DNA of 64,000 nt from an uncultured Bacilli bacterium (GCA_947632435.1 CANRPC010000007.1:15327-79326); one strand, 5' to 3'; counted from the stretch's first letter, positions 4,297 through 27,590 are shown. Numbers and translations: made by a program. Notes: generated by a model from the letters alone, not told the origin.

Positions 4297-4298
4297 TT

Positions 4299-4904: not shown

Positions 4905-4919
4905 AGGAGTTTATAATTT

Positions 4920-9383: not shown

Positions 9384-10301
9384 ATGAACCAATCAAACTT
9401 GCGTAGCGGTCAATTAAGTTCTATAAGAACAAAACTTTTGATTAAAGATTTTCTTTTCTTGTTTTTAACGTACGGAGTTTTATTGATTTTAATCTTTTTA
9501 GATACCATGTATTATGTAAAATATTTAAATGGTGATGATAATTTAGCTTTCTATTATGATAAAAGTTATTTAAACATCACTGTTTTTATTTTATTGTTTC
9601 TTCTTATAATACCTTATTCAATTTTGACCAAAAAAAAATTAAAAAAAGAAAATCATGAATTTAGACAAAAATATTTAAATTATGTTTTTGCTGAATGTGA
9701 ATTAAATGATATTAAATATAAATTCCGTAAAAAAAATTATGATTTTTCATTGAATGATGAATTAGAATCCCAACTTGGGATAAAAAAGATTACTTATCTT
9801 TATTCTCTTTCGGATATTTCTGTAGAAAGAGTTTTAGATTATATGCAGATAACATATAAAAAAGATAGTGAATTAAAATATGGCGTTATTTTACAACTTA
9901 AAACCGATACTTATTTAGATGGCTTTTTACAAATAAGAACTCGAGGCGAACCATTAAAACTTGATTATGAAAATAAAAAAATTCAACGATTTGGATTCTC
10001 ATCATTTAAAAATAAAAGAAGGTTTGAAATTTATTCTTCTTTAGGAAGTAGAACATACGATTTAGATAAACCAGATATAGCTAATCTTTTATTAAAAATT
10101 AGTAATTATTTAAGATCAAATTATTGTATTACTTATAAAAATTCGTTTATTTCTTTATTTATAGAGGATTTTCAATTTAATCTTACTTTAAATTATCTTG
10201 CCTTTACACAAGATGATTTTGAAAAAAAAATAGATTCTTTAATTCATTTGCATGAACTCACAAATGAATTAATGACAACATTAATGAGTTTTAAAGTATA
10301 G
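9384..10301 (+). CDS. Hypothetical membrane-anchored protein with two N-terminal TM helices and a cytoplasmic domain of about 220 aa.
   Basis: The ORF is 305 aa and is preceded by an extended -10 (TGATATAAT) and an AAGAGG RBS. No recognisable motifs were found. Confidence 0.45.
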   Translation: MNQSNLRSGQLSSIRTKLLIKDFLFLFLTYGVLLILIFLDTMYYVKYLNGDDNLAFYYDKSYLNITVFILLFLLIIPYSILTKKKLKKENHEFRQKYLNYVFAECELNDIKYKFRKKNYDFSLNDELESQLGIKKITYLYSLSDISVERVLDYMQITYKKDSELKYGVILQLKTDTYLDGFLQIRTRGEPLKLDYENKKIQRFGFSSFKNKRRFEIYSSLGSRTYDLDKPDIANLLLKISNYLRSNYCITYKNSFISLFIEDFQFNLTLNYLAFTQDDFEKKIDSLIHLHELTNELMTTLMSFKV

Positions 10302-11431: not shown

Positions 11432-11440
11432 GAGGTAAAT

Positions 11441-12553
11441 ATGGCACGTATTTTAGGTTTATGCAATTTGCATAATGCACCAAAACTTGGTTCATTAACA
11501 GAAAATAGAAGTATTGCTTCAATGTCCTTTTTAGGTCGATATTCATTTATTGACTTTACATTATCAAATTTTGCAAATTCTGGAATCGACCAAATGGGAA
11601 TACTTGTTGAAAGTGAATTACGTTCAATATTAAAACATATTGGTTCTGGTCGTATTTATAATTCAAATACAAAAACAGGATTTTGTTCTGTCATGTTTAA
11701 TGAAAAATTCTCAGATAATAATGGTTATAATAATGATATAGCTAATTTAATTGAAAACCATTGGGTTTTAGATCAATCAAATGCTGATTATATTGTTTTT
11801 GCTCCTTCACATATTATATATCGTTTTAATTTCAAAGAGATGCTTGATTATCATATAAAGAATAAAGCTGCTGTTACAATGCTATATTACAAAGCTAAAA
11901 ATGCTAGAAATAGTGACATTTATCTTGATGAATTAGAACTAGATGAAAATGGACGAGTTTTAACAATAAAAGCTAATAAAGGGGCTAATGAGTCTAGCAA
12001 TATTTCTTTAGATACTTATATTATTTCTCGTAATAAGTTAGAAGAATTTTTAAAACTTGGTCAAAAAACTTCAATGTTTTTTACGCTTCGTGACGTTTTA
12101 AGCTATATAGCAAGTAAAATATATATTTATTCATATGAATATGTAGGTTATGTGCGTTGTATTGATTCGATTAAAAATTACAAAATGTTTTCTTTAGAAT
12201 TATTAAATCACGATGTGTTAAAAAAATTGTTTGATGTTAATTGGCCAATTTACACTTTAACAAATGATACTCCACCTGCAAAATATAAAGAAAACGCTTT
12301 GGTTAAAAATTGTTTTATAAGTAATGGTGCTGTTATTGATGGAACAGTAATTAATTCGATTATTGGTCGTTCTGTTGTTATTGAAAAAGGAGCAGTTGTC
12401 GAAGATTCTATTATTTTAACTGATGCGCACATTGCTGAAAACGTACATCTTAAACACTGTATTATTGATAAATATGCAGAAATTTCTTTGAAAAAAGAAT
12501 TAATTGGTAGTGAGAATATACCGCTTGTTGTTAAAGAAAGGAATAAAATCTAA
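11441..12553 (+). CDS. glgD: Glycogen biosynthesis protein GlgD, a GlgC-like regulatory subunit.
   Basis: GlgC-like fold with a degenerate N-terminal glycine loop (LGLCNLHNAP). It lies immediately downstream of glgC, as in Firmicutes. Confidence 0.8.
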   Translation: MARILGLCNLHNAPKLGSLTENRSIASMSFLGRYSFIDFTLSNFANSGIDQMGILVESELRSILKHIGSGRIYNSNTKTGFCSVMFNEKFSDNNGYNNDIANLIENHWVLDQSNADYIVFAPSHIIYRFNFKEMLDYHIKNKAAVTMLYYKAKNARNSDIYLDELELDENGRVLTIKANKGANESSNISLDTYIISRNKLEEFLKLGQKTSMFFTLRDVLSYIASKIYIYSYEYVGYVRCIDSIKNYKMFSLELLNHDVLKKLFDVNWPIYTLTNDTPPAKYKENALVKNCFISNGAVIDGTVINSIIGRSVVIEKGAVVEDSIILTDAHIAENVHLKHCIIDKYAEISLKKELIGSENIPLVVKERNKI

Positions 12554-13980
12554 TGAAAATTTTAATGGTCGCTGGGGAAGCAAATCCCTTTGTAAAAACA
12601 GGAGGTTTGGCAGATGTCTGTTACTCACTTGCTAAATCACTTGTTAAAAAGAAACATGATGTTTCAATTGTCATTCCCTTTTATAAAAAAATTAAAGATC
12701 AATTATTTAACGAAGCTAAATTAATTAAAACGTTTCCTATTTATATGTCGTGGCGTATTCAATACTGTGGAATATATAAATATATTTATGAAGGAATAAC
12801 ATATTATTTTGTCGATAATGAACAATATTTTTATCGTGATGGTATATATAGTTTTGATGATGATATTGAAAGATTTGCTTATTTTGATTTAGCGGTAAAT
12901 GAAATGCTTTTTAATTTAGATTTACAATACGATATTGTTCATCTTCACGATTGGCAATCTGGTATGTTACCTTTATTATTCAAAACTGATTTTCGTGTAA
13001 ATTTATCAACATATAATCCTAAATTTGTACTTACAATTCATAATCCTGCTTTTCAGGGAAAATTTGATCCATATTATTTAGGTGATTTCTTTAATTTATC
13101 ACGAGAATTTTATGATAATGGAACTGTTAGATTTGATGAATGTTGTTCCTTTTTAAAAGCAGCAATAGTTTTATCAGATAAAATAACAACAGTATCATTA
13201 ACTCACGCGAAAGAATTATTAAATGGCGACCATGCTTACGGACTTGATAATGTTATTAGATTTAGAGATCAAGATTTTATTGGAATTACTAATGGTATAG
13301 ATTACGATGAATTTAATCCTAGTAAAGATAAATTTATAAAAAATTATAATGTTAATAATGCCTATGAAATTAAAAAAATTAATAAAATTGAACTTTTAAA
13401 ACAATTTAATTTAAAAAATCCTAATTTACCTTTATTTGTGGTGGTGTCACGTTTAACATTCCAAAAAGGAATCAGTTTAATTCTTGATGCTATTCCTCAT
13501 ATATCAGGAAAAGCAAATATCTTTATTTTAGGTTCGGGCGAAAAAGATTTAGAAGATCGTGCAGAATTTTTAAGAAAATGTTATTCAGAAAATTTAGCTA
13601 TATATTTAGGCTATAATGATGAATTAGCGCATAAATTATATGCTGCTGGTGACTTTTTCTTAATGCCTTCACTTTATGAACCATGTGGAATAGGTCAAAT
13701 GATTGCCCATCGATATGGAACATTACCAATTGTAAGAAGAACAGGTGGTTTAATTGATACTGTTAATGGTTATGATGGCACGAATAAAGAATTTGCTGAT
13801 GGACTTGATTTTAACGATTATGCACTTCAAGGATTATTAGGCCCATGTATGTCCGCGCTTGATATTTTTAAAAAAGTTGATCTTCATAAAAAACTTATTG
13901 TTAATTCTATGAAAAGAGTTCATGATTGGGATACATCAACAGAAAAATATATTAAGATGTATAAAGATTTATTAAAATAA
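12553..13980 (+). CDS. glgA: Glycogen synthase (ADP-glucose type).
   Basis: N-terminal KTGGLADV, and start/stop overlap (TAATG) with glgD. Confidence 0.9.
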   Translation: MKILMVAGEANPFVKTGGLADVCYSLAKSLVKKKHDVSIVIPFYKKIKDQLFNEAKLIKTFPIYMSWRIQYCGIYKYIYEGITYYFVDNEQYFYRDGIYSFDDDIERFAYFDLAVNEMLFNLDLQYDIVHLHDWQSGMLPLLFKTDFRVNLSTYNPKFVLTIHNPAFQGKFDPYYLGDFFNLSREFYDNGTVRFDECCSFLKAAIVLSDKITTVSLTHAKELLNGDHAYGLDNVIRFRDQDFIGITNGIDYDEFNPSKDKFIKNYNVNNAYEIKKINKIELLKQFNLKNPNLPLFVVVSRLTFQKGISLILDAIPHISGKANIFILGSGEKDLEDRAEFLRKCYSENLAIYLGYNDELAHKLYAAGDFFLMPSLYEPCGIGQMIAHRYGTLPIVRRTGGLIDTVNGYDGTNKEFADGLDFNDYALQGLLGPCMSALDIFKKVDLHKKLIVNSMKRVHDWDTSTEKYIKMYKDLLK

Positions 13981-13990
13981 AATATTACAA

Positions 13991-14024
13991 ATAGCATTTA
14001 GGTTTCTGAATGCTATTTTTTTTA
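13991..14024 (+). terminator. Rho-independent terminator after glgA.
   Basis: ATAGCATT / AATGCTAT stem (8 bp) with a 10-nt loop and a T8 run. Confidence 0.5.
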
Positions 14025-14064
14025 ACTTATTTATTTTTTATTCATATATTAAATAGGTGAAATT

Positions 14065-14529
14065 ATGCGTATTCCTTTTATTGGTTTTGGTAATGAAGAT
14101 GTGATTTATAATCTCAATTATGAACCATTTTTCTTAAATGAAATTGAAACAATTATCTTTAAATATATTTTACTTTTTAAAAAAAATGAAGTAGAAAAAT
14201 TTATTGCTTTTTTTAAAAAATGTAATAGTTCTATTGAGGAAATAGAAAATAATAAAAAACTAGTTTTCAATAAGGATGTGGAATTATATTTAGATGATAA
14301 AGCAAAAGATAATCAATTTTTTGCCCATATTACTCATGATAAAAAAATTTCTAAAGCAGATTTAGATATTCTTGATTACTATTTAAAAACATTTTTTGAT
14401 GCCATATATGATGTACATATATCGCTAGATAAAACATGTCCATTTGCGATATCATTTTCTTTTAGTTTCTATCAAGATAAAATTAAAGAGATAAATATGA
14501 AACGTTATAAGCAACTTTCTTCTAATTAA
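14065..14529 (+). CDS. Hypothetical protein (154 aa).
   Basis: Its N-terminus MRIPFIGFGNED resembles an internal segment (IEIPFIGFPLHN) of the downstream 679-aa regulator, suggesting a paralogous fragment. Confidence 0.35.
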   Translation: MRIPFIGFGNEDVIYNLNYEPFFLNEIETIIFKYILLFKKNEVEKFIAFFKKCNSSIEEIENNKKLVFNKDVELYLDDKAKDNQFFAHITHDKKISKADLDILDYYLKTFFDAIYDVHISLDKTCPFAISFSFSFYQDKIKEINMKRYKQLSSN

Positions 14530-14652
14530 TTTTAATAACGTTTTTTTAATAAATACATCTTTAAATCAAACAAATTCTCATGTTGTTTACAAATAAAGGT
14601 TATGTTAAACTAAATTTATAAATAAATAATAAATTACAAGTAGGTGGATTAA

Positions 14653-16692
14653 GTGGTAACAATTAAAGATATAGCAAAAAAGGCAGGTGTATCTTCTGGT
14701 ACTGTATCAAATGTTTTAAACAAAAGAGGCAATACAAGTTTAAAGAAAATACAATTAGTTGAGCAAGCAGCAAAAGAACTTGGATATTTTTTTAATGAAA
14801 CCGCTAGTTCGTTGAGGACAAATAAAAAAAGAGATATAGCTTTGATTGTTCCTACACTTAATAATTCCTTTTATCAAAAAATATTTGATATTATTTATCA
14901 TGAATTTATTAATACAAATATTAGAATTAATATTTTAATTACTAATTTTAATCCTCAAACGGAACAAAATATTGTTAATCAGTCTATTGCAAATAATAAG
15001 TATTTAATAATTGCTTCTTGTTTAAAAGATAATTCGGAATTTTATGAAAAAATAACTAGTTCTGATACTAAATTTATTTTTATTAATTCCTATCAAAAGA
15101 GTATAAATAATACTTTTGTTTCAATTTCTAATAATTATGCACAACTATTTAATGATATTAATAATATTATTCAAGAAAATAAATATAAAAAGATTTTATT
15201 TTTTACTGATAAAAAAATCCCTCAATCACGACTTATTGATGGTGATGTGACTACTTTAGTATCATATAATGAAGTAAATGATTTATCTAATGCTATTGAA
15301 TTATTGTATTCTAATGAATTTGATTTAATTATTACTACTTCAATTAAAAAATATCAAGCTATAAATTCGGCGACAAAAATATTAGCCAAAAATAATTTTG
15401 CAAAAATAATTTCTATTGTAGATAGTGATAACTTTTCTAATAATGAAGTAATTCCTTATTATCAAAATGTAAATGAATTCATTATTAACATAATTAATAA
15501 TATTATTAATGAAACTAAAGTTAATAAAATTGAGATTCCTTTTATCGGTTTTCCTCTTCATAATAAGAAAACTCCTCATGGTGAAAGTATAAATATTTTA
15601 ATGATTGAAAGTCCAGCAACTTTAGCGTTAAAAAAGATAAAACCATATATTGAAAAAAAATTAAATTTCAAGATTAATATTGATGTTATAAAATATGATG
15701 AATATGACAAATTAAAAAATGATGATTATGTTAGTAATTATGATTTAATTCGTATTGATATGGCATATTTACCAGAAATTGCACCAAAGATATTTAAACC
15801 TTTAAATAAACAATTTTATAAATTAAGTGAAAAGCTAATTGATAATCTCAATGAATATATTTTTGTAAAAGATGTTGTATATGCTTTACCTTTTGATGTT
15901 TCTTGTTTAGTGATGATGTATCGTAATGATATTATTAACAATCAATTAATTGAAAGACAATTTTATGAACAAACAAAATGTGTAAATATAATTCCAAATG
16001 ATTATGAAACATATCATACTTTAGAAACTTTTTTTCAACAAAATTATCGCGATATATTTTTTACAGGAACAGTATGTTTAGGCTCATCAATTACTGCAAG
16101 TAATGAATTTCTAATGAGAATAGATAAAAATTATATTTTTAAAGATACAAAACTAGATGTTGATGATCCTGTAGTTAAAAAAGCCTTAGATAGTTATTTA
16201 CATTCTGCTTCTCATTCAAAAAAATTAACTAATAAATTCTGGGATGATGTTGCTTTAGAATATGCAGAAGGACATACAGTTTTATCGATAGTGTATTCAA
16301 ATTATATTAATTTGTTAAATAATGTGAAAAATGATATTTTGTTTAAAACAAGCTTTTGCCAACCACCAAACAATACTTCTTACATTGGCGGAGGTGTTTT
16401 AGGTCTTACAAAATCATCAACAAAAGAAGAACTTGTTTATAGTTTTCTTGAAACTTTATATAGTGATGAAATTAGTAAATTATTAACGCAACTTGGAGCA
16501 TTATTACCTACAAAAAATATTTACAATAACTTTGAATTAACTACGATGTATCCTTGGATAAAACTAATTCCTAAAGCACTTGCTTCAAATAAAAGAAGAA
16601 GAATAAACGCTAATGGTAAAGAATTTAATACTATTGAATTTGAAAGAGAAATTGGTAGACAAGTAAGAAAATATATTTTAGATAATTTGTAA
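14653..16692 (+). CDS. LacI-family HTH transcriptional regulator carrying a very long sensor region of about 620 aa, with periplasmic-binding-protein-like and solute-binding-like portions.
   Basis: The N-terminus VTIKDIAKKAGVSSGTVSNVLN...AAKELGY is a canonical LacI HTH. The protein is 679 aa, about twice LacI length, with no TM segments. It has a GTG start with a TAGGTGG RBS. Confidence 0.65.
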   Translation: MVTIKDIAKKAGVSSGTVSNVLNKRGNTSLKKIQLVEQAAKELGYFFNETASSLRTNKKRDIALIVPTLNNSFYQKIFDIIYHEFINTNIRINILITNFNPQTEQNIVNQSIANNKYLIIASCLKDNSEFYEKITSSDTKFIFINSYQKSINNTFVSISNNYAQLFNDINNIIQENKYKKILFFTDKKIPQSRLIDGDVTTLVSYNEVNDLSNAIELLYSNEFDLIITTSIKKYQAINSATKILAKNNFAKIISIVDSDNFSNNEVIPYYQNVNEFIINIINNIINETKVNKIEIPFIGFPLHNKKTPHGESINILMIESPATLALKKIKPYIEKKLNFKINIDVIKYDEYDKLKNDDYVSNYDLIRIDMAYLPEIAPKIFKPLNKQFYKLSEKLIDNLNEYIFVKDVVYALPFDVSCLVMMYRNDIINNQLIERQFYEQTKCVNIIPNDYETYHTLETFFQQNYRDIFFTGTVCLGSSITASNEFLMRIDKNYIFKDTKLDVDDPVVKKALDSYLHSASHSKKLTNKFWDDVALEYAEGHTVLSIVYSNYINLLNNVKNDILFKTSFCQPPNNTSYIGGGVLGLTKSSTKEELVYSFLETLYSDEISKLLTQLGALLPTKNIYNNFELTTMYPWIKLIPKALASNKRRRINANGKEFNTIEFEREIGRQVRKYILDNL

Positions 16693-16781
16693 AATTAAAA
16701 AGAGTTTTAGTAAATAAATATTATTTATTACTAATTCTCTTTTTTTTTACTTTAGGGAGAATTGTCGTAAAAAATAAAATA

Positions 16782-16810
16782 TTGACACGTTTCAAAATTG
16801 AATATATAAT
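16782..16810 (+). promoter_or_regulatory. Consensus sigma-A promoter upstream of the EEP lipoprotein gene.
   Basis: TTGACA, a 17-nt spacer, then TATAAT, about 30 nt upstream of the start codon. Confidence 0.6.
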
Positions 16811-16840
16811 GAAGTTAGAAATTAAGAAGGAGTTTATCTT

Positions 16841-17758
16841 ATGGATTTTCTTAAAAAATGTAAGCGCTTACATATATACGCTTTAACCTTACTTTGTCCT
16901 TTATGTGTTTTTGGTTGTTCGCAAAATAAGCAACCTAAAAGTGAATTTGTATTAAATGCTATGTCTTTTAATATGAAATTTGAAAATCAAACAGGTGGGG
17001 GAGATCCTATACACACATGGGCAAATCGAAAAGGTGGTATTGCAGAATGTTTGAACAATTATAATGTCAGTATTGTTGGCACTCAAGAATTAGAAGGATG
17101 GCAATATGATGAATTGATGAGTTTACTTGGTGAAAATTGGTCAGGAGTTGGTCTTCCACGTTTTACAATTGATTCGGAACGTTCTTCGATTTTATATCGT
17201 AATGATGTATTAGAATATCTTGAAGGCGAAACAATTTGGTTATCAGAAACACCATCTGTCGTGGGTTCAAAAAGTTGGGATTCTTCTTTGCCAAGAATTT
17301 TGACATATGGTAAATTTTTGCATAAAGCATCTAATCAAGAATTTTATTATTTTAATACTCACTTAGATCACAAATCAACTCTAGCAAGAGAAAAGCAATT
17401 AGAAGTTATTTTGTCATATATGGAAAAATATAGTGACTATCCTGAATTGTTAACAGGTGATTTTAACATGAATATTGATGCTGAACAATTTAAACCAATG
17501 ACTGATAAATCTGATATTTATGGAAATACTTTTGAACCATTTTTAGATGAATTTGGTGAAAACATGAAAACAACACATGGATTTAATGGAGGTATAAAAG
17601 GAAAACCAATTGATTTTATTTTTTATACCAAAGCTAATTTGACAGTTGAATCAACACAAATTATTCATGATTTATATGAAGATAGATTCTATTTGTCAGA
17701 TCATTATCCCGTTTTTTCTGTCTTAAAGTTAAACAAAATTGATCAACAAGAAAAATAA
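16841..17758 (+). CDS. Endonuclease/exonuclease/phosphatase (EEP) family lipoprotein.
   Basis: The signal peptide ends in the lipobox VFGC. EEP-like catalytic segments include ...GTQE..., ...NTHLDH... and ...SDHYPV... at the C-terminus. Confidence 0.7.
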   Translation: MDFLKKCKRLHIYALTLLCPLCVFGCSQNKQPKSEFVLNAMSFNMKFENQTGGGDPIHTWANRKGGIAECLNNYNVSIVGTQELEGWQYDELMSLLGENWSGVGLPRFTIDSERSSILYRNDVLEYLEGETIWLSETPSVVGSKSWDSSLPRILTYGKFLHKASNQEFYYFNTHLDHKSTLAREKQLEVILSYMEKYSDYPELLTGDFNMNIDAEQFKPMTDKSDIYGNTFEPFLDEFGENMKTTHGFNGGIKGKPIDFIFYTKANLTVESTQIIHDLYEDRFYLSDHYPVFSVLKLNKIDQQEK

Positions 17759-17891
17759 TTTAAACACAAAAATTTAGATTTAGATTTATAACTATTAATT
17801 ACAAATATATTTATAATTTAATCATTGTCGCGACGTTAAATATATAAAATCTAAGTACATAATAATAGTTAAATAAAATGAAAGGATTAAA

Positions 17892-18971
17892 ATGAAAAAG
17901 AAAATTATATTATTAGCTTCATTATTAACCGCTGCAAGTTTATGTTCTTGTAGTAATGGTGGTGAAGTAACAGGTGAAGATGGATTAGTTTACGCTAAAA
18001 GTATTATTGTTTATACAAATCAAACTTCTGGAGGTCGAGGGGCACAACTAGAAGCTATGATTGCAAAAGAGAATTTTCCATTTAGCGTAACACTAGTTGA
18101 ATTAGCTGGGCAAAATTTAAAGAACAGATTAATTAATGAAAAGAATAATCCATTTGCAGATGTTGTTTTAGGTGGATCAACAGCAGAATACATTGAATTA
18201 AAAAAAGAACAAGTTATTACACCTTACGCCCCATCTTGGAAAGTTAATATTGATGAAGAATATTATGAAAGTGAAAACTATTATACCGCTTGGGCAGTTG
18301 AACCATTGTATCTTTGTTACAATACAAAATATTTTACAAATGATCCTGCTAAAGTAACTTCATCAGTTAGCTTAGCACCAACTGGTTGGGAAGATTTAGC
18401 AAAAAATTTTAAGGGAAAATATAATGTTTTCAAACCAAGTTCAACTTCTGGTTCGATTATTTATTCATCAATTCTATGTAAATATAAAGATGATAATGGA
18501 ACTTTAGGTATTTCTCAAGAAGGTTGGAACTTCTTAGGCGAAGTAATAAATAATGGCATTCTCGATAATGGTTTATGGCAAGCAAACTTGGCAGGAAATA
18601 AAGCACCTATTGCAATGTCGTGGGCAGGAGCAGTTCTTGAAGTTGAAGATGCTTATGATGTTGATTTAGAAGTTGTTGTTCCTGATGAAGGCGTACCAGC
18701 AACTATTTCACAAGTTGCTTTATCTAATGTAAAAGACCAAAAACGACTTAATGCTGCGAAGAAATTTATTGATTGGTGGGGTGATGCTAAAACCCAAATT
18801 GAATGGGCAAAAATATCATGTCAAGCACCATTAAATAAATCTGCGATTGATCAAGTTGATCAAAAAGTTAGAGATATTGCCGATGTCAAAATAATGGATT
18901 TAGATTGGGAATTCATTGCTAATTATTCAAGTCAATGGCGAGAATATATCGAATTAAATATTTTAGATTAG
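17892..18971 (+). CDS. ABC transporter substrate-binding lipoprotein (family-1 solute-binding, Fbp/Pot/Thi-like).
   Basis: Signal peptide with lipobox (ASLCSC), size of about 360 aa, and position as first gene of an ABC operon. Confidence 0.65.
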   Translation: MKKKIILLASLLTAASLCSCSNGGEVTGEDGLVYAKSIIVYTNQTSGGRGAQLEAMIAKENFPFSVTLVELAGQNLKNRLINEKNNPFADVVLGGSTAEYIELKKEQVITPYAPSWKVNIDEEYYESENYYTAWAVEPLYLCYNTKYFTNDPAKVTSSVSLAPTGWEDLAKNFKGKYNVFKPSSTSGSIIYSSILCKYKDDNGTLGISQEGWNFLGEVINNGILDNGLWQANLAGNKAPIAMSWAGAVLEVEDAYDVDLEVVVPDEGVPATISQVALSNVKDQKRLNAAKKFIDWWGDAKTQIEWAKISCQAPLNKSAIDQVDQKVRDIADVKIMDLDWEFIANYSSQWREYIELNILD

Positions 18972-18980
18972 GAGAATTAT

Positions 18981-21497
18981 ATGAAAAAAAGATTATTAGT
19001 TGCAAGCTTATTAATTGGTAGCACTTGTTTATTAGGAGGATGTAATAATTCCACCAAACCTAGTACATCAAGTAAAGAACCAGTTTCAAGCATTAATTCA
19101 GAAGATGATAGAGTTCTTTCTGTTAAAGAAGTTTTACAACAACCAGATTTAACTAAAGTTACTTTTGAAGGAATTGTTATAGGTTATGATTTTGGTAAAC
19201 TTCATATTATTATTGAAGATGTAGATCAATCTTGTTCAATTCAATTATACAAAAATCCTGGATTTGCAAAAGCAAAAATTGGCGATTTAGTCAGAGTTGT
19301 TGGTTATCGTACATACGATAGAAGTGTTGATAGATTAACACCTGACTCATTAGAGGTTATTTCCTCAAATCATCCATGTAGTTTAGATAATCCAATTGTT
19401 ATTGAAGGCGAAGATTTATTTAAATGGACAAGTGAAAATAGAACAAATAAAGATATTCTTTTCAAAGCATATGAATTTAGAAATGTTGAAATTAAAGAAT
19501 TTGCCTCTAACTATACATATTTAGATAATAAATATGATGAAGAAGGTGGAAGAGGATTAAAAATTGGTATTAAAAATGGAAATTCTTATTTTCCAGTGGA
19601 TGAATTAAATTTAGTACAAGGGCAAAAATATAATATTAAAGCAGTCTTATATGGAATAAGTGATGATTTCTTTGATGAATCACTTGATGGAACTGTTTTA
19701 AGACTTACTATATTAAAACAAGAAGATGTAGAATTAGTTATTGAAAATAAAGAAGAAGCAACTGTTATTGTTTCAGGAACACGTTCTTTTTTAACAACAG
19801 AAACGACGCTTCCAGATTTCAAAACATATTTTAACGTTGTTGATCCAGTGGATGGTAATGTTACTGTAACTGATGAAATGATAACTCATAATGTTGACTT
19901 AAGTAAACCTGGTGTTTATAAAGTTAAGATGGAATATACAAATTCATTGAAAACAACCACGACAAAAGAAATTGAAATCTATGTTACAGATAAAGGTAAT
20001 AGCGTTTCAGAAGTATTAACTCATGTCGAAGAAGGAATTGATATGTATGTCAATGGAGTAGTTCTTGGCTGGAGTTATAATGGTGGTCAAAAGAAAGCTA
20101 TGATTATTCAAGATCCATCAACTGGTGAAGCAATTGAATTCTGGGTAAATAATAAATCAGCATTCCAAAAAATGAAAGTTGGAGATCAAGTATTATTATA
20201 TTCCACAAATTTAGCTTTAGAAAAAGGACTACCTCGTTTAGGTGGAACAGTGACATTACTTGAAACAATTTCTAAGGATAATGAATTATATCCAGCAGTA
20301 GAAATTGATGATATTAGTGCATGGTCAGCTTCTTTAATGGAATCACAAAAATCATTCTTTGGTCGTTATACATTCACTGCTGAATTTGTTGAACAATCTA
20401 GTAGTTATGGATATTTCTTAAAACAAACTGATAGTGAAAAACATATTCTTCAAATTGGTACCTATGAATCAAATTATTCATATAATTTTGTCGCAGGTGA
20501 AAAATATAAAGTTACAGCTGTAGCGCATGGTATATCTGATCCATATTCATCGTTAGAGACAAAATCTATCGTTATGAGATTAAGTATTATGAACGAAAGT
20601 GATGTTGAACATTTAATTGAAAAACCTGATGAAGGTGAAGATGCCACCGTTGTCTTTAATGGTGAAAAATATTATTTAGTTGGTGATGCAAAACCTGATT
20701 TTACAAGTGCCTTTACTGTTGTCGATGCTGTTGATGGAAATGTAACTGTTACTCAAGATATGATCGATAATCCAATGGATATGAATAATGAAGGAAATTA
20801 TGAAATCACTTTAACTTACACTAATACTGAAGGTCATAAAACCATTTATAAAACAACAGTAAATGTTTCATTATATGGATTAAGTGTAAGTGAAGCAATT
20901 GCCTTAAAAGGAACTAATACTCCATTATATTTCAATGGATATGTAAGTGGATTTGCGATTAATTCAAGCAATAATAAAACTGCAGTAACAATTGAAGATA
21001 CAGAAAATGGTGAAACAATTGAATTTTGGGCCAATGATCATTCTGATTATAGAAGTAAATTTAATGAATATAAAGTCGGTGATCATGTTGTAATTAAAAC
21101 TGATTGTACAAAAGATAATAAAGGTTTACCAAGAGCGGGTAATGTTAAAAATCAAACTAAACCTATTAAAATTATTTCTTCTAATAATCAATTAAAAGAA
21201 CCAAAAGTTATCGAAGATTTAGGAACATTTATTGAAGAAGCAAAAGCCAATAAAACTAATGTATTAGGTAGATATAAATACACTGGAAAAGCAAGTGGTG
21301 CTTCCAATTTATTGGTGGAAAATTCAACATATAAGTTCCAATTAAATAGTTCATATTATGCATATACATTCGAAGCTAATGCTACTTATGAAGTTACATT
21401 TGTTATTCATGGATATAGTGAAGCTCTTGATTCCAAACAAGATGCATCAGTTAGATTTACTATAATGAGTGAAAATGATGTAAGAAAAATTTCATAA
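18981..21497 (+). CDS. Large surface lipoprotein (838 aa) built from three tandem divergent modules.
   Basis: Lipobox LLGGC. An OB-fold-like segment recurs three times (VTFEGIVIGYDFG.., MYVNGVVLGWSYNGG...IEFWVNNKS, LYFNGYVSGFAINSS...IEFWANDHS). A YKVTAVAHGISD / YNIKAVLYGISD / YEVTFVIHGYSE segment also recurs three times, and an Ig-like segment (TVVDAVDGNVTVTQDMI / NVVDPVDGNVTVTDEMI) recurs twice. Confidence 0.6.
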   Translation: MKKRLLVASLLIGSTCLLGGCNNSTKPSTSSKEPVSSINSEDDRVLSVKEVLQQPDLTKVTFEGIVIGYDFGKLHIIIEDVDQSCSIQLYKNPGFAKAKIGDLVRVVGYRTYDRSVDRLTPDSLEVISSNHPCSLDNPIVIEGEDLFKWTSENRTNKDILFKAYEFRNVEIKEFASNYTYLDNKYDEEGGRGLKIGIKNGNSYFPVDELNLVQGQKYNIKAVLYGISDDFFDESLDGTVLRLTILKQEDVELVIENKEEATVIVSGTRSFLTTETTLPDFKTYFNVVDPVDGNVTVTDEMITHNVDLSKPGVYKVKMEYTNSLKTTTTKEIEIYVTDKGNSVSEVLTHVEEGIDMYVNGVVLGWSYNGGQKKAMIIQDPSTGEAIEFWVNNKSAFQKMKVGDQVLLYSTNLALEKGLPRLGGTVTLLETISKDNELYPAVEIDDISAWSASLMESQKSFFGRYTFTAEFVEQSSSYGYFLKQTDSEKHILQIGTYESNYSYNFVAGEKYKVTAVAHGISDPYSSLETKSIVMRLSIMNESDVEHLIEKPDEGEDATVVFNGEKYYLVGDAKPDFTSAFTVVDAVDGNVTVTQDMIDNPMDMNNEGNYEITLTYTNTEGHKTIYKTTVNVSLYGLSVSEAIALKGTNTPLYFNGYVSGFAINSSNNKTAVTIEDTENGETIEFWANDHSDYRSKFNEYKVGDHVVIKTDCTKDNKGLPRAGNVKNQTKPIKIISSNNQLKEPKVIEDLGTFIEEAKANKTNVLGRYKYTGKASGASNLLVENSTYKFQLNSSYYAYTFEANATYEVTFVIHGYSEALDSKQDASVRFTIMSENDVRKIS

Positions 21498-21553
21498 TTA
21501 ACTAATCTATACGGAGGTATTACATAAATTGTAATATCTCCTCTTATTTAAGG

Positions 21554-22564
21554 ATGGAAAAAATGATTGATTTAAAAGATATACAAATTAAATATGGAAA
21601 TTTTGTAGCAATGGATAATTTGAATCTTCATATTAATGAAGGTGAATTCTTTTCCTTTTTGGGACCATCTGGCTCAGGAAAAACAACGGTTTTAAATGCT
21701 TTAGTTGGTTTTTTAAATCCTTCCAAAGGATCAATTTATATTGATAATAAAGATGTGACAAAACTTTCTATTGAGCAAAGAAAAATCGGTATTGTTTTCC
21801 AATCTTATGCATTATTTCCAACAATGAATGTTTATGAAAATATTGCATATGGATTAAGAGTTAGGAAAACTCCAAAAAATGAAATCGATATAATGGTAAA
21901 AGATATTGCAAGAAAAGTAGATTTATCAGATGAACAACTTATGAAAAAAGTATCTGAGTTATCTGGTGGTCAACAACAACGTGTTGCAATTGCAAGAGCA
22001 TTAGTTATAAGACCAAAAATCTTATGTCTTGATGAACCATTATCTAATCTAGATGCAAAATTAAGAGTAAAATTACGTTTAGAATTAAAGAAACTTCAAA
22101 AAGAATTTAAAATTACTACAATTTATGTAACTCACGATCAAGAAGAAGCTTTGACACTTTCTGATCGGTTAGCAATTTTTGATAATGGTAACCTTCAGCA
22201 AGTTGGAACACCAAAAGAAATTTATCAAAATCCTCAAACGGAATTTGTTCAAAATTTTATTGGTGAAACAAATAAACTTGATGGAACATTATGTAAAGAA
22301 ATGTTGAAAGAGTATCAATTGACACTTAATGAAACAAAGCCAGTTTACATTTCAATAAATAATGTAAAAACAGAGAAATTTGAAGGTTGCATAAGTATAA
22401 AAGGTAAAGTAATAAATATTGAATATTTTGGATTTTATGTCAAATATACAATAGAAACAAAAGAAGGATTAAATATTAAATTTATACAATTTAATGATAC
22501 TTCATATGCTTTAGAAGATGAGGTGTGTGTCTATGTTGACCAAGCTAAAATCGTTCAATATTAA
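21554..22564 (+). CDS. ABC transporter ATP-binding protein (PotA/FbpC-like, with a C-terminal TOBE-like domain).
   Basis: Walker A GPSGSGKTT, signature LSGGQQQRVAIARAL and Walker B ILCLDEPLSNLD. Confidence 0.9.
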   Translation: MEKMIDLKDIQIKYGNFVAMDNLNLHINEGEFFSFLGPSGSGKTTVLNALVGFLNPSKGSIYIDNKDVTKLSIEQRKIGIVFQSYALFPTMNVYENIAYGLRVRKTPKNEIDIMVKDIARKVDLSDEQLMKKVSELSGGQQQRVAIARALVIRPKILCLDEPLSNLDAKLRVKLRLELKKLQKEFKITTIYVTHDQEEALTLSDRLAIFDNGNLQQVGTPKEIYQNPQTEFVQNFIGETNKLDGTLCKEMLKEYQLTLNETKPVYISINNVKTEKFEGCISIKGKVINIEYFGFYVKYTIETKEGLNIKFIQFNDTSYALEDEVCVYVDQAKIVQY

Positions 22565-24278
22565 AAATGCATTTAAAAATTTACCATATTTTTTTAAGAA
22601 AAACTGGTTTAATATTATTATCACAATTTTAATAATTTGGGGATTATTTACATTTCTAATTTATCCAAATATAAATATTGTTTTTGAGGCTTTTCAAGAA
22701 AATGGTCATTTCTCATTTAATTCTTTTAAAAAGATTGCTAATTCTAGTCGGGCTTTAAAAAGTTTAGGAAACAGCTTTTTATTAGCAGTTACTTTAGCAA
22801 TTACGGTAAATTTAGTTGGAATATTCATTGTACTAGTTACCGAATATTTTGAAATAAAAGGATCAAAGATTTTAAATGTTGGTTATATGACGACATTTAT
22901 TTATGGTGGAATTGTCTTAGTTTCTGGCTATGTGTTTGTCTATGGTGAAACAGGTATGTTAACACGTATGATTCAAAGCGTGTTTAAAGATTATAAGGCA
23001 TCTTGGTTTACAGGATATATCGGTGTATCATTTGTTATGACTTTTTCTTGTACCTCGAATCATATGTTGTTTTTAAAAAATGCTTTGAAGAAAGTTGATT
23101 CTCACACTATTGAAGCTTCAAAAGCCTTAGGCGCTTCAACATTTACAACCTTTGTTAAGGTAGTATTACCAATTCTCTTACCAACTATTTTCTCTTGCAC
23201 AATACTTGTATTTATTAGTGGTTTAGGAGCTTATGCTGCTCCTGTATTAGTGGGAGGTAAACAATTTCAGACTATCAATCCTTTAATTAGAGCCTTAGTT
23301 TATGACTCACCAAGTATTAGTATTGTTTTATCGGTTATTTTAGGCGCTTTAACAATTGGACTACTTTGTATTTTTACAAGAGTTGAAAAAAAAGGCACTT
23401 ATTATTCTTTGTCAAAGACTAAAGGAATATTTAAAAAGCAAAAAATTGAAAATAAAGTTGTAAATGTAATTGTACATATTCTTGCCTACATATTATTTGT
23501 AATTTATGTTATGCCAATTATTTTTATTGTTATATTCTCATTTACAAATGCCCAAACTATTGCAAGTGGCCAAATTAACTTTTCAAGTTTTACCTTAAAT
23601 AATTATATTGAAGTATTTAAAAATGGAGATACATTAAAACCATTATTAATTAGTACTTTTTATTCAATTATTGCTTCTTTTGTAGTAGTAATGTTAGTCC
23701 TTTTCTTAATAATTTTATCATTTAAATATAAAAATCGACTTACAAGAATTATGAAATATGTTCTTTTAATTCCTTGGTTACTTCCTTCAACTATTATCGC
23801 TCTTGGATTAGTGCAAACATTTAATAAACCTCAGCCTTTAGTTTTTAATCAAGTATTAGTTGGAACTACGTTCATCATTGTAATGGGTTATATTATCCAT
23901 AAAATTCCATTTACAAATCGAATGTTAAATGCCATTTATTATACTGTTGATGGAACATATGAAAAGGCATCAAAAAGTTTAGGTGCAAAAGGATTCTACA
24001 CCTTTAGAAGAGTCACTTTACCAATGATTTTGCCAACAGTTGTAGCTTTAATTGCTATTAATTTTAATAGCTTAATTACTGATTATAATATGACTATTTT
24101 CCTTTACCATCCACTTTATAAAACATTAGGTGTGGAAATTAAAAATCAAACGGACATAATGGCAGGAGGAAATGTCCAAGTGGTCTTACTTGTTTATACT
24201 GTTTTCTTAATGGTATTTTCTGGTTTAGTCCTTTATGTTGCTTATGGCAAATTGCTAAAAAAATTTAAATCTGAATAG
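22533..24278 (+). CDS. Fused double ABC permease (two tandem six-TM permease domains, FbpB/AfuB-like).
   Basis: The protein is about 580 aa with roughly 12 hydrophobic helices in two repeats. The ATG at 22533 is preferred because a GAGGTG RBS lies 7 nt upstream. Confidence 0.8.
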   Translation: MLTKLKSFNIKNAFKNLPYFFKKNWFNIIITILIIWGLFTFLIYPNINIVFEAFQENGHFSFNSFKKIANSSRALKSLGNSFLLAVTLAITVNLVGIFIVLVTEYFEIKGSKILNVGYMTTFIYGGIVLVSGYVFVYGETGMLTRMIQSVFKDYKASWFTGYIGVSFVMTFSCTSNHMLFLKNALKKVDSHTIEASKALGASTFTTFVKVVLPILLPTIFSCTILVFISGLGAYAAPVLVGGKQFQTINPLIRALVYDSPSISIVLSVILGALTIGLLCIFTRVEKKGTYYSLSKTKGIFKKQKIENKVVNVIVHILAYILFVIYVMPIIFIVIFSFTNAQTIASGQINFSSFTLNNYIEVFKNGDTLKPLLISTFYSIIASFVVVMLVLFLIILSFKYKNRLTRIMKYVLLIPWLLPSTIIALGLVQTFNKPQPLVFNQVLVGTTFIIVMGYIIHKIPFTNRMLNAIYYTVDGTYEKASKSLGAKGFYTFRRVTLPMILPTVVALIAINFNSLITDYNMTIFLYHPLYKTLGVEIKNQTDIMAGGNVQVVLLVYTVFLMVFSGLVLYVAYGKLLKKFKSE

Positions 24279-24286
24279 GAGAAATT

Positions 24287-24967
24287 ATGTACATAAAGAA
24301 AACATTAGAAAAATTTTATGAAAATAAAGAATATAAATATTTTCCTGGAAATACAATTATCCATTTTTTAGATAATAAAGATCAGATAAAAATTATTTGT
24401 GAACTAAAAAAAGAGATGGAAAAAAATAGTCTATTTGAAAAGTTTGTTTTTCTTCCAGAAAATAGTTACCATATGACAGTTTGTGATATTGTGACATATA
24501 AAAACTTAAAAGATGATAATAAATATAAATTTGATAGCTCCTCTAATCTATATAATATGGATAAACAAATTGCTTCCTTTTTAAAAGATACTATCTACGA
24601 TTTAAATATTAAGATGGTTCCTAAAAAAATCAAAGCTAAAAAAATTGTTCTTGAGCCAAAAACGGATTTAGATGCTAAAAAATTATCCGAATTTAGATCA
24701 TTTGTTGCTTCAAAAATAGGCATCCAGTTACCAAATAATTACACGTTTCATATTTCATTAGCCTATCAATTAAAAGAATTAAATGAAAAAGAAACGGAAG
24801 AAATGGATAAATTCTTAGAAATCTTAAATAATAAATATTTGCATTTACTTAATGAAATAAATGTAAATAAAGCATATTTTGTTCTATTTAATGATATGTA
24901 TGCTTATGGTTTAATTGAAAATGGAAGATTAAATTTAGGTGTAACAAATAAATATCAAGAAATTTAA
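24287..24967 (+). CDS. 2H phosphoesterase superfamily protein (LigT/2',3'-cyclic phosphodiesterase-like).
   Basis: Two H-x-T/S-x motifs (SYHMTV and TFHISL) are separated by about 90 aa. The gene starts 9 nt after the permease stop and has a TAGGAG RBS. Confidence 0.55.
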   Translation: MYIKKTLEKFYENKEYKYFPGNTIIHFLDNKDQIKIICELKKEMEKNSLFEKFVFLPENSYHMTVCDIVTYKNLKDDNKYKFDSSSNLYNMDKQIASFLKDTIYDLNIKMVPKKIKAKKIVLEPKTDLDAKKLSEFRSFVASKIGIQLPNNYTFHISLAYQLKELNEKETEEMDKFLEILNNKYLHLLNEINVNKAYFVLFNDMYAYGLIENGRLNLGVTNKYQEI

Positions 24968-24983
24968 TTGTTAAACTATTTAT

Positions 24984-25017
24984 CGGCTAATCGTAAATAA
25001 TGCGGTTAGCCTTTTTA
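24984..25017 (+). terminator. Rho-independent terminator ending the ABC/2H operon.
   Basis: GGCTAA / TTAGCC stem followed by TTTTT. Confidence 0.45.
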
Positions 25018-25205
25018 CATTAAAAACAAATTTTTAAACAAAATAAGTTGTTAAATATAATGATTTTTTTAATTAACTAGCATAAATAAAATTTATTACA
25101 TTTTGTTTTGTAAGTTGAAGCAAATAAAAATTTATGCAATAATTTTAAGAGTAAGCCTTTTTAATAAATTAATTATTAAAAATAAGACTTAGTAAGAGGT
25201 TATCT

Positions 25206-27590
25206 ATGAAATATAATCATCAAGAAATCGAAGCAAAATGGCAAAAATATTGGGATGAAAATAAAACATATTTTTGTGATACTCATGATTTTTCTAAACC
25301 AAAATTTTATTGTTTAGATATGTTCCCTTATCCTTCAGGCGCGGGATTACATGTTGGTCATCCAGAAGGGTATACTGCTTCAGATATAATTTGCCGTATG
25401 AAAAGAATGCAAGGCTATAATGTCTTACATCCTATGGGTTGGGATGCTTTTGGGTTACCAGCTGAACAATACGCTATAAAAACAGGAAATCATCCAGGTG
25501 ATTTTACTAATCAAAATATTAATAATTTTCGACGTCAAATTAAAATGCTTGGTTTTTCTTACGATTGGTCTAAAGAAATATCCACTGCAGATCCTAAATT
25601 TTATAAGTGGACACAATGGATTTTTAAGCAATTATATTTAAATAATCTTGCTGAAAATAAAGATATACCTGTCAACTGGTGTGAAGAACTTGGAACTGTT
25701 CTTGCAAATGATGAAGTAATAAATGGTAAATCGGAACGTGGTGGTTATCCTGTTGTTCGTATTAATCATAAACAATGGGTTATTAAAATTACCGAATATG
25801 CGGAAAAACTTTTATCAGGATTAAATAATATTGATTGGCCTAATTCAACTAAAGAAATTCAAAAAAATTGGATAGGTAAATCATATGGTGCTAATGTGCG
25901 TTTTTTTATTGATGACAAAATTTATTTTGATGTCTTTACAACTCGCCCTGATACTTTATTTGGAGTAACATATTGTGTTTTAGCGCCAGAACATCCACTT
26001 GTTTTAAAAATTTGTGATGCTAAACATGAAGATGAAGTTAGAAAATATATTGATTCTTGCCTTCATAAAAGTGAGCTTGAAAGAAAAGAATTAAATAAAG
26101 AAAAAACAGGTGTATTCTTAGGTGCATATTGTATTAACCCTGTTAATGGAAATAAAATACCTATTTATATCGCGGATTATGTCTTGTATTCATATGGTGA
26201 AGGTGCTGTTATGGCTTGCCCTGCTCATGATGAAAGAGATTATGCATTTGCTAAAAAATATCATCTTCCAATTATTGAAGTTTTAAAAGGTGGCGATATA
26301 TCGATTAATGCTTTTTGTGATGATGGTGAACATATAAATTCTTCTTTTTTAAATGGTTTAAAAATTGATGAAGCCAAAGAAAAAATAATTGCATATTTAG
26401 AAAGTATAAATCGTGGTGAAAGAAAAGTTCAATATAAATTAAGAGATTGGATTTTTGCAAGACAACGTTATTGGGGTGAACCAATTCCTATTGTGCATTA
26501 TGAAGATCATGATGAAGTTTTAGATGATAACGAACTACCATTAATTTTACCTAAATTAAATGATTATAAACGTAAAATTGCTTCAAAATCACCATTAGAA
26601 AATAATGAAGAATGGATAAATTATAAAGGTGGTAAAAGAGAATCTGATACTATGCCAGGAAGCGCTGGTTCTTCATGGTATTATTTACGATATATTGATC
26701 CAAATAATGATGAAAAATTTGCAGATTATGATTTATTAAAATTTTGGATGCCAGTAGATTTATATATTGGTGGAGCAGAACATGCGGTTGGACATCTTTT
26801 ATATTCAAGATTTATTAATCATTTTTTATACGATAAAGGTTTTGTGCCAACGGAAGAACCATTTTTAAAAATATTTCATCAAGGTATGATTTTAGGGGAA
26901 AATGGTTCAAAAATGTCTAAATCACTTGGTAATGTTGTTAATCCTGATGATGTTTGTAACAATTATGGCGCGGATACTTTAAGATTATATGAAATGTTCA
27001 TGGGACCACTTGAAGCCTCTTTACCATGGTCAACTGGTGGATTAGAAGGTGCTAGAAAATTTATCGAAAGAGTATTTCGTCTTTTTGTAGAAGAAGAATA
27101 TGTAAAAAAATTTAGTGATATTAATAATCATAAATTAGATTATATATATAATTTTACAGTCAAAAAAGTAACTGATGATTTTTCCTCATTGCAGTTTAAT
27201 ACTGCGATATCACAAATGATGATTTTTATAAATGAAGTTTATAAACAAGATGTTATTTATAAACCTTATCTTGAAGGCTTTTTGAAAATGTTTTTCTGTA
27301 TTTGCCCTCATCTTGGTGAAGAAATATATCATCTTTTAGGACATGAAGAAATTATTGATTATACTTCTTGGCCAAGTTATGATGAAACAAAAATTGTTTT
27401 AGAAGAAAAAGAAATTGGCGTACAAATTAATGGTAAACTTAGAGCCACTTTAAAAATAAAACTCGATTCTGATGAAGAAGAAATAAAAAATAATGCATTA
27501 TCATTAGATATTATAAAAAAATATGTTGATGGGAAAACTATTAAAAAAGTTATTGTAATTAAAAATCGTATTGTAAATATTGTTATTTAA
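25206..27590 (+). CDS. leuS: Leucyl-tRNA synthetase.
   Basis: HIGH-type motif ([13 protein letters not shown]) and the class I KMSKS motif; 794 aa. Confidence 0.95.

Follow-up and report, generated by a model that had tools for sequence, protein, structure and literature searches.

A candidate nucleic-acid utilization operon of wall-less Mycoplasmatota that joins a tandem-OB surface lipoprotein to an ABC importer

Extracellular DNA and RNA constitute large nutrient pools in guts and sediments, and a dedicated genetic system for feeding on DNA was defined only in 2025, for Bacteroidales with TonB outer-membrane machinery only. The DNA-utilization locus of Bacteroides thetaiotaomicron (ddbABCDEF / BT3560-3563) has been validated experimentally as needed to deplete exogenous DNA and encodes DdbD, a DUF5689 protein that is the proposed DNA-binding partner of the TonB transporter and has been likened to p202 (4JBM) (PMC12478041). 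The same locus also holds genes for lipoprotein nucleases of the endonuclease/exonuclease/phosphatase (EEP) family (PMC8851478). In Mycoplasma, it is an established hypothesis that a surface nuclease is co-transcribed with an ATP-binding cassette (ABC) importer for nucleotide precursors (PMC3585158). Here a cassette of seven genes is described that invites comparison with both systems. It lies in a stretch of 64,000 nucleotides from an uncultured Bacilli bacterium (GCA_947632435.1, CANRPC010000007.1:15327-79326), which is referred to as the window throughout. In our judgement, the chances are about evenly balanced that the cassette serves anaerobic wall-less bacteria (Mycoplasmatota, near Anaeroplasmataceae) as a nucleic-acid utilization operon induced by its substrate.

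The window has a G+C content of ~25% and is read with the standard bacterial code. Between a glycogen operon and leuS it harbours seven co-oriented genes, encoding a LacI-type regulator, an EEP lipoprotein, a solute-binding protein (SBP), a lipoprotein with oligonucleotide/oligosaccharide-binding (OB) folds, an ABC ATPase, a permease and a 2H phosphoesterase. The initial annotation had listed six genes with their domains as a candidate nucleic-acid scavenging locus; the open reading frames match its coordinates exactly and the domain calls hold. The seven-gene set recurs intact in six Mycoplasmatota lineages: that of the window, an uncultured Anaeroplasmataceae metagenome-assembled genome (L004/L011), L006/L007, L009, the complete genome of Mycoplasmatota bacterium WC30 (L012) and L013. 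Every contig that carries a cassette-type homologue, defined by at least 44% identity for the 2H protein or at least 48% for the binding protein, and that is long enough to judge contains the same seven genes, while more distant homologues of the 2H protein, which belongs to DUF1868, are found without the seven-gene cassette around them. Identity falls as low as 48% for the binding protein and 37% for the 2H protein. As the same seven genes stay together although their flanks are unrelated from lineage to lineage and the binding proteins have diverged to 48% identity, the grouping is not due to chance. The cassette was found in only a few wall-less bacteria of gut type, and homologues are rare: a collection of 5.8 billion proteins contains 30 clusters for the 2H protein, 17 for the big lipoprotein and 28 for the binding protein. 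A pattern-based contig scan with the SBP alignment, which gives a lower bound, returned one species representative, an uncultured Anaeroplasmataceae.

Two neighbourhoods deserve separate mention. In L004 the cassette directly follows genes for a thymidine kinase and a cytidine/dCMP deaminase (530-1554), and in L006 genes for an RNA ligase, an AAA_33 kinase-like protein and a methyltransferase (12335-14965), which might represent an RNA-repair set, lie just downstream on the opposite strand.

Within the cassette, the EEP, SBP and OB lipoproteins have signal peptides that end in a lipobox cysteine, and no hydrophobic segment was found in the regulator, the ATPase or the 2H protein. The regulator and the 2H enzyme, in which neither a signal peptide nor a transmembrane segment was detected, are predicted to be cytoplasmic.

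The sole component that speaks to the nature of the polymer is the OB lipoprotein (18981-21497, + strand; 838 residues, LLGGC lipobox); it provides the main evidence for a nucleic acid and points to DNA or RNA. Three repeats of ~210 residues, located at 19107-19742, 19989-20618 and 20871-21494 on the + strand (residues 43-254, 337-546 and 631-838), match one another in pairwise BLASTP comparisons at 6e-36, 2e-27 and 3e-5. Ig-like spacers follow units 1 and 2, and homologues carry from two to five units. An AlphaFold2 model of unit 2, built from an alignment of 37 units (pLDDT 96.7, pTM 0.92), predicts that each unit consists of two OB barrels joined by a helix, so that the lipoprotein would display six OB folds in total. 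What had initially been described as OB-fold-like repeats are thus true OB folds by the model, and belong to a family tied to extracellular DNA handling.

Against the PDB, Foldseek matches unit 2 exclusively to nucleic-acid binders with tandem OB folds (E 5e-6 to 1e-3): Teb1-AB, the HIN-200 proteins IFI16, AIM2, p202 (including 4jbm) and p204, POT1, SSB, RPA and LEF-3, with TM-scores of 0.3-0.4 that are limited by the angle between the barrels. DUF5689 is matched by 10 of the 37 OB units, and two homologues exceed its gathering score of 28.6 (P0038 with 57.4 bits, P0040 with 50.6 bits). A HMMER scan of 1.84 billion representatives yielded 257 relatives of the OB unit at E <= 1e-3, 12 of them at E <= 1e-30. 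Among the 39 next-best relatives, 12 carry a tRNA_anti OB domain, 11 DUF5689, three a lamin-tail domain (LTD), two a ComEC N-terminal domain and one is YhcR-like, that is, an SNase plus 5'-nucleotidase protein. A cassette-type EEP domain is fused to remote OB relatives in none of 142 representatives. It is proposed that the OB lipoprotein captures the polymer at the cell surface.

Gram-positive bacteria possess surface nucleases in which OB folds and a catalytic domain form one protein, namely YhcR of Bacillus subtilis and streptococcal SpnA and SsnA. In these too, OB folds from this broad family are displayed on the cell surface along with a hydrolase of nucleic acids. The cassette differs from these proteins in that the OB array and the hydrolase are separate lipoproteins encoded within an importer operon.

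The resemblance to the ddb system resides in the placement of a surface lipoprotein with DUF5689 HIN/p202-like tandem OB folds beside transporter genes and genes for EEP-family lipoprotein hydrolases, and in the logic of a polymer-utilization locus: capture, cutting and import. The differences are equally clear. A Mollicute has no outer membrane and no TonB-dependent DdbC, and an SBP-dependent ABC importer is present instead. The OB module, single in Bacteroidales, is multiplied in the cassette, with two to five units on Ig-like stalks. Whereas the Bacteroidales locus has three proven nucleases, the cassette has one EEP gene of a phosphatase-type subfamily. It also includes two components of its own, a DUF1868 2H enzyme in the cytoplasm and a dedicated LacI-type repressor to which a sensor domain is fused.

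The MAG_5040 operon of M. agalactiae and the mhp379 operon of M. hyopneumoniae are closer in taxonomic terms: they too occur in Mollicutes and combine a lipoprotein hydrolase, a binding lipoprotein and an ABC importer, for which a role in nucleotide-precursor supply has been proposed (PMC3585158). Nonetheless, these operons encode SNase-fold lipoprotein nucleases upstream of the transporter, a sugar-type ABC system and two separate permeases, lack the OB array, the 2H enzyme and the LacI operator, and have no protein family in common with the cassette beyond generic ABC parts. A Pfam-level scan found an SNase domain in none of the cassette proteins.

The EEP lipoprotein (16841-17758, + strand; 305 residues, signal peptide ending in VFGC) scores 36.5 bits against PF03372 (gathering score 24.5). 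Its catalytic set is intact, residues N44, E83, H174, D176, D207, N209, D258, D287 and H288 being invariant in six orthologues. Among PDB sequences, the EEP profile matches 3g6s (2e-40), 4c1r (1e-37) and 3mpr (2e-37), which together with 3l1w form one tight group; the next matches are CCR4/CNOT6L deadenylases (CNOT6L at 1e-5), Nocturnin (2e-5) and ANGEL2 (0.016). The protein is predicted to act on a phosphodiester or a phosphomonoester. Nuclease activity is plausible from context and not from homology: the cassette has no other surface hydrolase, and in the Bacteroides locus DUF5689 occurs together with EEP lipoprotein genes. Because nucleases of the EEP fold generate 5'-phosphate and 3'-hydroxyl termini, 2',3'-cyclic nucleotides produced by the EEP protein, which had been suggested as cargo of the importer, are chemically unlikely.

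The solute-binding lipoprotein (17892-18971, + strand; 359 residues, with a lipobox) is an SBP_bac_8/6 protein of the Fbp/AfuA/PhnS/PotD class. The best Foldseek match of its AlphaFold2 model (pLDDT 92.4) is 8x1a, the glucose 6-phosphate binder VcA0625; FbpA, P5PA and AfuA are recovered at ~1e-17, and the FbpA and PotD folds span ~1e-14 to 1e-17. At E <= 0.01, the family profile finds P5PA (2.7e-7), VcA0625 (1.2e-5) and AfuA (0.0066) among PDB sequences, along with six weak matches (~0.004) to variants of one sugar-binding protein, and no binder of Fe3+, thiamine or polyamines. The 28-member family contains neither an invariant His nor an invariant adjacent Tyr pair. The initial annotation had favoured a nucleic-acid pathway over an iron or polyamine importer, and such an importer is indeed disfavoured, as the SBP does not cluster with Fe3+ or thiamine binders. 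Ferric binders of the FbpA/SfuA/FutA type ligate the metal through His, Glu and Tyr-Tyr, and the cassette SBP has only the overall fold in common with them.

The sequence points to a phosphate ester as the probable cargo. AfuA owes its specificity to His205, Asp206 and Glu229 (PMC4546632). In a HMMER alignment to 4r72 these residues fall on G246, A247 and T271, the first two of which are invariant in the SBP family. The phosphate contacts Ser37 and Thr150 of AfuA align to G73 and G187: the residues differ, and they lie inside the conserved loops E70-x-x-G-Q74-N-L-K and K181-P-S-S-x-x-G187. The cassette importer has in common with AfuABC (PMC4546632), the pyridoxal-phosphate binder P5PA (PMC8427247) and VcA0625 the structural class of the binding protein, probably a phosphate-ester cargo and a history of misannotation as iron transporters: one SBP orthologue has been named iron(III) transport system substrate-binding protein by JGI. 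The relationship is distant only (E 2.7e-7 to 7e-3), and the specificity residues of AfuA are not kept.

The ABC ATPase (21554-22564, + strand; 336 residues) is PotA/PhnT2/UgpC-like with a C-terminal TOBE_2 domain, and AfuABC likewise has a PotA-like ATPase. The permease is encoded at 22518-24278 on the + strand as one fused protein of 586 residues in its longest open reading frame, with two BPD_transp_1 stretches and many hydrophobic segments. Its true start may be located a few codons later, the gene called in L001 encoding 581 residues. A fused permease is also found in AfuABC. All NCBIfam scores remain below the model cutoffs: 63.5 against 392.75 for PhnS2 (TIGR03261), 327.8 against 457.7 for PhnT2 (TIGR03265) and 100.9 against 593.25 for PhnU2 (TIGR03262), the last of which the permease resembles over its full length, at a score far below cutoff.

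The last gene of the operon (24287-24967, + strand) encodes a 226-residue 2H protein of the DUF1868 branch (PF08975, 45.9 bits; gathering score 21). The two HxT/S motifs attributed to it are both kept, as H62-M-T64 and H155-I-S157, without variation among 16 family members or among the six cassette orthologues. The family profile matches the solved structure of the family, 2fsq (Atu0111), over its full length at 9.2e-41, and the protein is a putative phosphodiesterase or cyclic phosphodiesterase. No characterised DUF1868 member is named in the literature searched.

In other phyla, plasmids of Deinococcus, Rhizobium and Kosakonia carry DUF1868 either as the final gene of an ABC importer operon under a LacI or ROK regulator or next to such an operon. 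The plasmid loci compared are those of Deinococcus gobiensis plasmid P2 (L017), Rhizobium sp. BT04 (L015), Kosakonia cowanii (L018), in which a glycerophosphodiesterase (GDPD)-family gene is also present, and Vibrio nigripulchritudo (L016). As DUF1868 is the last gene of repressor-controlled importer operons in these phyla too, the enzyme would be expected to act on imported cargo. The binding proteins of the plasmid DUF1868-ABC operons are not close to the cassette SBP (hhalign E 0.43 and 0.0012), which means that importers of more than one family accompany the 2H enzyme. This distribution suggests a widespread and so far undescribed import-then-cleave phosphodiester module. One Ruminococcaceae DUF1868 gene sits in a sugar ABC / AraC / acetyl-xylan-esterase locus. 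On several E. coli IncF plasmids, including an IncFIA plasmid (NZ_CP070073.1, 57186-57986; L014), a lone DUF1868 gene with no transporter nearby is found between the microcin B17 operon, pemIK and partition genes.

The XanT-XanP system of Xanthomonas and the DUF1868 plasmid operons resemble the cassette in that genes for uptake and for a repressor accompany that of an HxT...HxS 2H phosphoesterase; they differ from it by the absence of EEP and OB lipoproteins. XanP is a 2H enzyme whose gene has those of a ROK regulator and a transporter as neighbours. It hydrolyses a galactose phosphodiester after import, a TonB transporter bringing in the substrate, a cyclic dimer of galactose phosphate (PMC12807533). 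Motifs and gene context place XanP in DUF1868 by inference, and if this placement is right the nearest biochemistry for the cassette enzyme is the cleavage of sugar diesters.

Upstream of the EEP gene, the regulator (14653-16692, + strand; 679 residues) scores 49.2 bits against PF00356 (gathering score 27) and 26 bits against SBP_bac_1. Residues 1-185 correspond to a LacI-type helix-turn-helix (HTH) domain and the N-terminal part of the LacI effector domain. Matches to CcpA, Cra and LacI in the PDB cover residues 2-185 only, and NCBIfam alignments also stop near residue 185. Instead of the single type-1 periplasmic-binding-fold effector of ~270 residues that makes up the whole C-terminal part in the LacI family, residues ~339-606 form a complete type-2 solute-binding-like domain (SBP_bac_1/8). 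This unusual architecture of ~680 residues is kept in all six lineages. The SBP-like domain finds only weak matches in the PDB, to SmoF and one Fbp protein, and a paralogous relationship to the binding protein of the transporter was considered and rejected (BLASTP E 0.92). The gene is adjacent to the cassette in every lineage, although its position varies: it either precedes the cassette, co-oriented or divergent, or follows it in convergent orientation.

The operon promoter (16782-16810, + strand) is a TTGACA-17 nt-TATAAT element, the sole 12/12 match within 14400-25300. The -35 hexamer makes up the left half of a palindrome of 14 bp with a central CG, TTGACACGTTTCAA (16782-16795), which is probably a LacI-family operator in the classic layout, judging from an N-terminal HTH in the regulator and a palindromic central-CG site at the promoter. 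In all six lineages the motif TTGAYACGTWTCAA is found upstream of the EEP gene and over the -35 box, with two copies in L012 and L013; the window contains one exact copy against 0.13 expected by chance with one mismatch allowed, and there is no further copy elsewhere in the loci compared. Together with the six-lineage synteny, the conserved operator supports the earlier suggestion that the long LacI-type regulator controls the locus, and with it the view that the genes form one functional unit.

The gap between the EEP and SBP genes amounts to 133 nt in the window (17759-17891) and to 4-41 nt in the other lineages, and this spacer shows neither a copy of the operator nor a strong promoter or terminator. 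An 8-bp palindrome, GTCGCGAC, occurs there within AT-rich sequence. As the operator lies at the promoter of the EEP gene, the gaps are short in relatives and no terminator precedes the SBP gene, EEP is the first gene of the operon. The consensus promoter initially assigned to EEP is thus genuine, but it serves the whole operon and does not set the gene apart from the ABC genes as a unit of its own.

A stem-loop of 12 bp (21513-21541, + strand; -16.7 kcal/mol, z -4.8) is located between the OB and ATPase genes. Stem-loops of 12-21 bp, with z-scores from -3.1 to -8.5, occur directly 3' of the OB gene in all six lineages (L004 ~7168-7211, L006 ~7224-7253, L009 ~7217-7249, L012 ~15351-15402, L013 ~14485-14519); their position and stability are kept while the sequence is wholly turned over. 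The structure is probably a 3' mRNA stabiliser or a partial terminator that favours the lipoprotein genes over those for the membrane and cytoplasmic proteins. Hairpins that protect the front section of ABC operon transcripts commonly show such an arrangement. The operon is followed by an intrinsic terminator (24985-25011, + strand) with an 11-bp stem, five GC pairs and a T-run. An Rfam scan found no family at gathering score in the window, including the 133-nt spacer, nor a T-box or any other family in the 238-nt leader of leuS (24968-25205).

These components can be assembled into a tentative sequence of events. In the absence of inducer, the LacI-type repressor would sit on the conserved palindrome over the -35 box and keep the promoter shut. 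Once the promoter is open, one transcript would deliver the three surface lipoproteins, the ABC importer and the cytoplasmic enzyme, the stem-loop keeping the lipoprotein part more abundant. At the membrane, the six predicted OB folds on Ig-like stalks may capture extracellular DNA and/or RNA, an activity suggested by their fold and by the link to their family. The EEP lipoprotein would then trim the captured polymer, by exo- or endonucleolytic cleavage or as a phosphatase on its terminal phosphates. A small phosphate-containing product would be passed by the SBP to the fused permease and the PotA-like ATPase; a nucleotide, dinucleotide or short oligonucleotide is the likeliest. In the cytoplasm, the DUF1868 2H enzyme may cut the remaining phosphodiester or cyclic phosphate to give mononucleotides for salvage; this step would be better fitted by a short oligonucleotide that retains phosphodiesters, or by cyclic nucleotides arising from other RNases. 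Finally, the repressor probably detects the imported compound through its additional solute-binding-like domain.

The points in favour of nucleic-acid utilization are the synteny, the conserved operator, the model and the relatives of the OB array, an SBP nearest to organophosphate binders and the intact 2H motifs, which have not been lost in any member aligned; the thymidine kinase and deaminase neighbours in L004 are counted here as well, and so are the terminal position of DUF1868 in other importer operons, the EEP lipoprotein nuclease genes of the Bacteroides locus and the co-transcription hypothesis from Mycoplasma. Of the picture drawn in the initial annotation, the single unit, the OB folds and the 2H motifs have stood, while the EEP nuclease is not supported by homology, the cyclic-nucleotide cargo is unlikely and the EEP gene is not a separate unit.

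Several observations weigh against this reading. That the first gene encodes a surface lipoprotein of the EEP fold is sound, but homology does not justify the label nuclease that it had been given: the only characterised member of its group is 4c1r, deposited as a mannosyl-6-phosphatase and known as BT3783 of B. thetaiotaomicron, and no DNase I or ExoIII type protein matches the EEP profile among PDB sequences at E <= 1. The SBP fold fits the whole Fbp/AfuA/P5PA/PhnS/PotD class equally well, a fold search being blind to the class of cargo. Unit 2 of the window reaches DUF5689 at E 3.6e-5 and 24.2 bits, under the gathering score, and the OB units are acidic (median isoelectric point 4.7, range 4.05-6.4), which is unusual for domains that bind the backbone. 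Regulators of the LacI and ROK types, like sensor domains of the SBP_bac_1 type, are commonly associated with the catabolism of sugars. The DNA binding of DdbD itself is inferred only in the paper that describes it (PMC12478041). XanP, the single characterised 2H enzyme that shows the motif pattern and spacing of DUF1868, was inactive on the nucleotides tested (PMC12807533), and its HxT and HxS motifs are 105 residues apart, as in proteobacterial members of DUF1868.

Much of this evidence would also be accommodated by an operon for the utilization of phosphoglycans or sugar phosphodiesters, such as teichoic-acid fragments, phosphomannan or capsular phosphodiester glycans, an explanation that we regard as unlikely but as a serious contender. 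The OB array would bind this polymer, the EEP protein would serve as a phosphodiesterase or phosphatase, a phospho-sugar diester would be imported, and the 2H enzyme would split it into sugar phosphates, as XanP does with xanthosan. Such an assignment is favoured by the mannose-6-phosphatase BT3783 as nearest characterised relative of the EEP protein, by the glucose 6-phosphate binders VcA0625 and AfuA among the best fold and sequence neighbours of the SBP, by the acidic OB units and by the LacI-type regulator. The motif spacing of XanP, its ROK and transporter context and its sugar phosphodiester substrate point in the same direction (PMC12807533), as do the Kosakonia and Rhizobium plasmids on which a ROK regulator and an ABC importer accompany DUF1868, with the GDPD-family gene in Kosakonia, and the sugar ABC locus of one Ruminococcaceae member. 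However, the OB array, which is the only polymer-specific part, has relatives tied to DNA (DdbD/DUF5689, YhcR-like, LTD, ComEC N-terminal and tRNA_anti OB proteins), and all structural neighbours of its unit are nucleic-acid binders. Moreover, genes for a glycoside hydrolase, a kinase or a sugar-phosphate isomerase are missing from the cassette, the sugar-specifying residues H205, D206 and E229 of AfuA are replaced in the SBP, and the membership of XanP in DUF1868 is itself inferential. Because the backbone of a nucleic acid also consists of pentoses linked by phosphodiesters, either polymer would be compatible with the sugar-phosphate affinities of the EEP, SBP and 2H proteins.

A role of the OB lipoprotein in adhesion, or in natural transformation as the receptor of DNA, with the importer and the 2H enzyme serving an unrelated small organophosphate, is very improbable. 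A DUF5689 protein is essential for natural transformation in Riemerella (PMC8459023), and a ComEC N-terminal domain is found in two remote relatives of the OB unit. Against this, the OB gene stands between the SBP and ATPase genes in all six lineages and is under the same repressor-controlled promoter as the importer, no ComEC, ComEA, DprA or pilus genes are adjacent, and binding-protein-dependent ABC importers move, as textbooks hold, small solutes and not DNA strands.

An ordinary importer of Fe3+, polyamines or 2-aminoethylphosphonate with unrelated neighbours is scarcely credible: the JGI name, the FbpA and PotD folds and PhnS2/T2/U2 and PotA as best NCBIfam models speak for it, but the scores lie far under their cutoffs, neither the expected binders at E <= 0.01 nor an invariant His or Tyr pair is found, and such an importer would leave unexplained why its genes are strictly inherited together with those for the EEP, OB and 2H proteins under a common operator. 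The 2-aminoethylphosphonate variant was dropped, as the cassette contains no phosphonate catabolic genes and the equivalog scores are far below cutoff.

The remainder of the window provides some context. The glycogen operon with glgC, glgD and glgA occupies 10313-13980, and leuS 25206-27590. Genes of a Wadjet anti-plasmid system are present at 2842-8309, encoding JetA (PF18982), JetB (DUF4194) and an SMC-like JetC. No JetD is recognisable after JetC: open reading frames at 8325-8789 and 9384-10301 have no Pfam match, and the ~600 nt between them are free of open reading frames, so that the system may be degraded or possess a divergent JetD. On the + strand, GC skew is positive up to ~50 kb and negative beyond, and gene orientation flips there (around 50429-50905). 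The switch is probably a replication terminus, with the pattern of converging forks.

DNA polymer-utilization loci in Bacteroidales, described in 2025, and nuclease-plus-ABC operons in Mycoplasma are already known. The literature searched describes neither this combination of families nor an OB array multiplied in this way, a LacI repressor fused to a sensor or a 2H enzyme as terminal gene. Nucleotide uptake by Mollicutes was shown physiologically decades ago and, to our knowledge, has never been assigned to a transporter. The cassette suggests that a DUF5689-type tandem-OB capture module has been joined to an ABC importer in the wall-less, nucleotide-scavenging Mycoplasmatota. In its most far-reaching form, which we advance tentatively and consider somewhat improbable as a whole, this would be the first dedicated nucleic-acid utilization system in a bacterium devoid of an outer membrane, with a DdbD-like OB array feeding a nucleotide or oligonucleotide ABC importer, DUF1868 proteins acting as intracellular phosphodiesterases on oligonucleotides or cyclic phosphates, and a fused-sensor LacI repressor answering to nucleic-acid breakdown products. 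Should the polymer instead be a phosphoglycan, the operon would represent a new phosphoglycan utilization system, likewise undescribed. If nucleic-acid utilization is correct, the cassette would supply a candidate gene set for nucleotide or oligonucleotide import and a compact regulon made up of repressor, operator and promoter, and would for the first time place two orphan families, DUF1868 and the BT3783-like EEP group, in a physiological setting.

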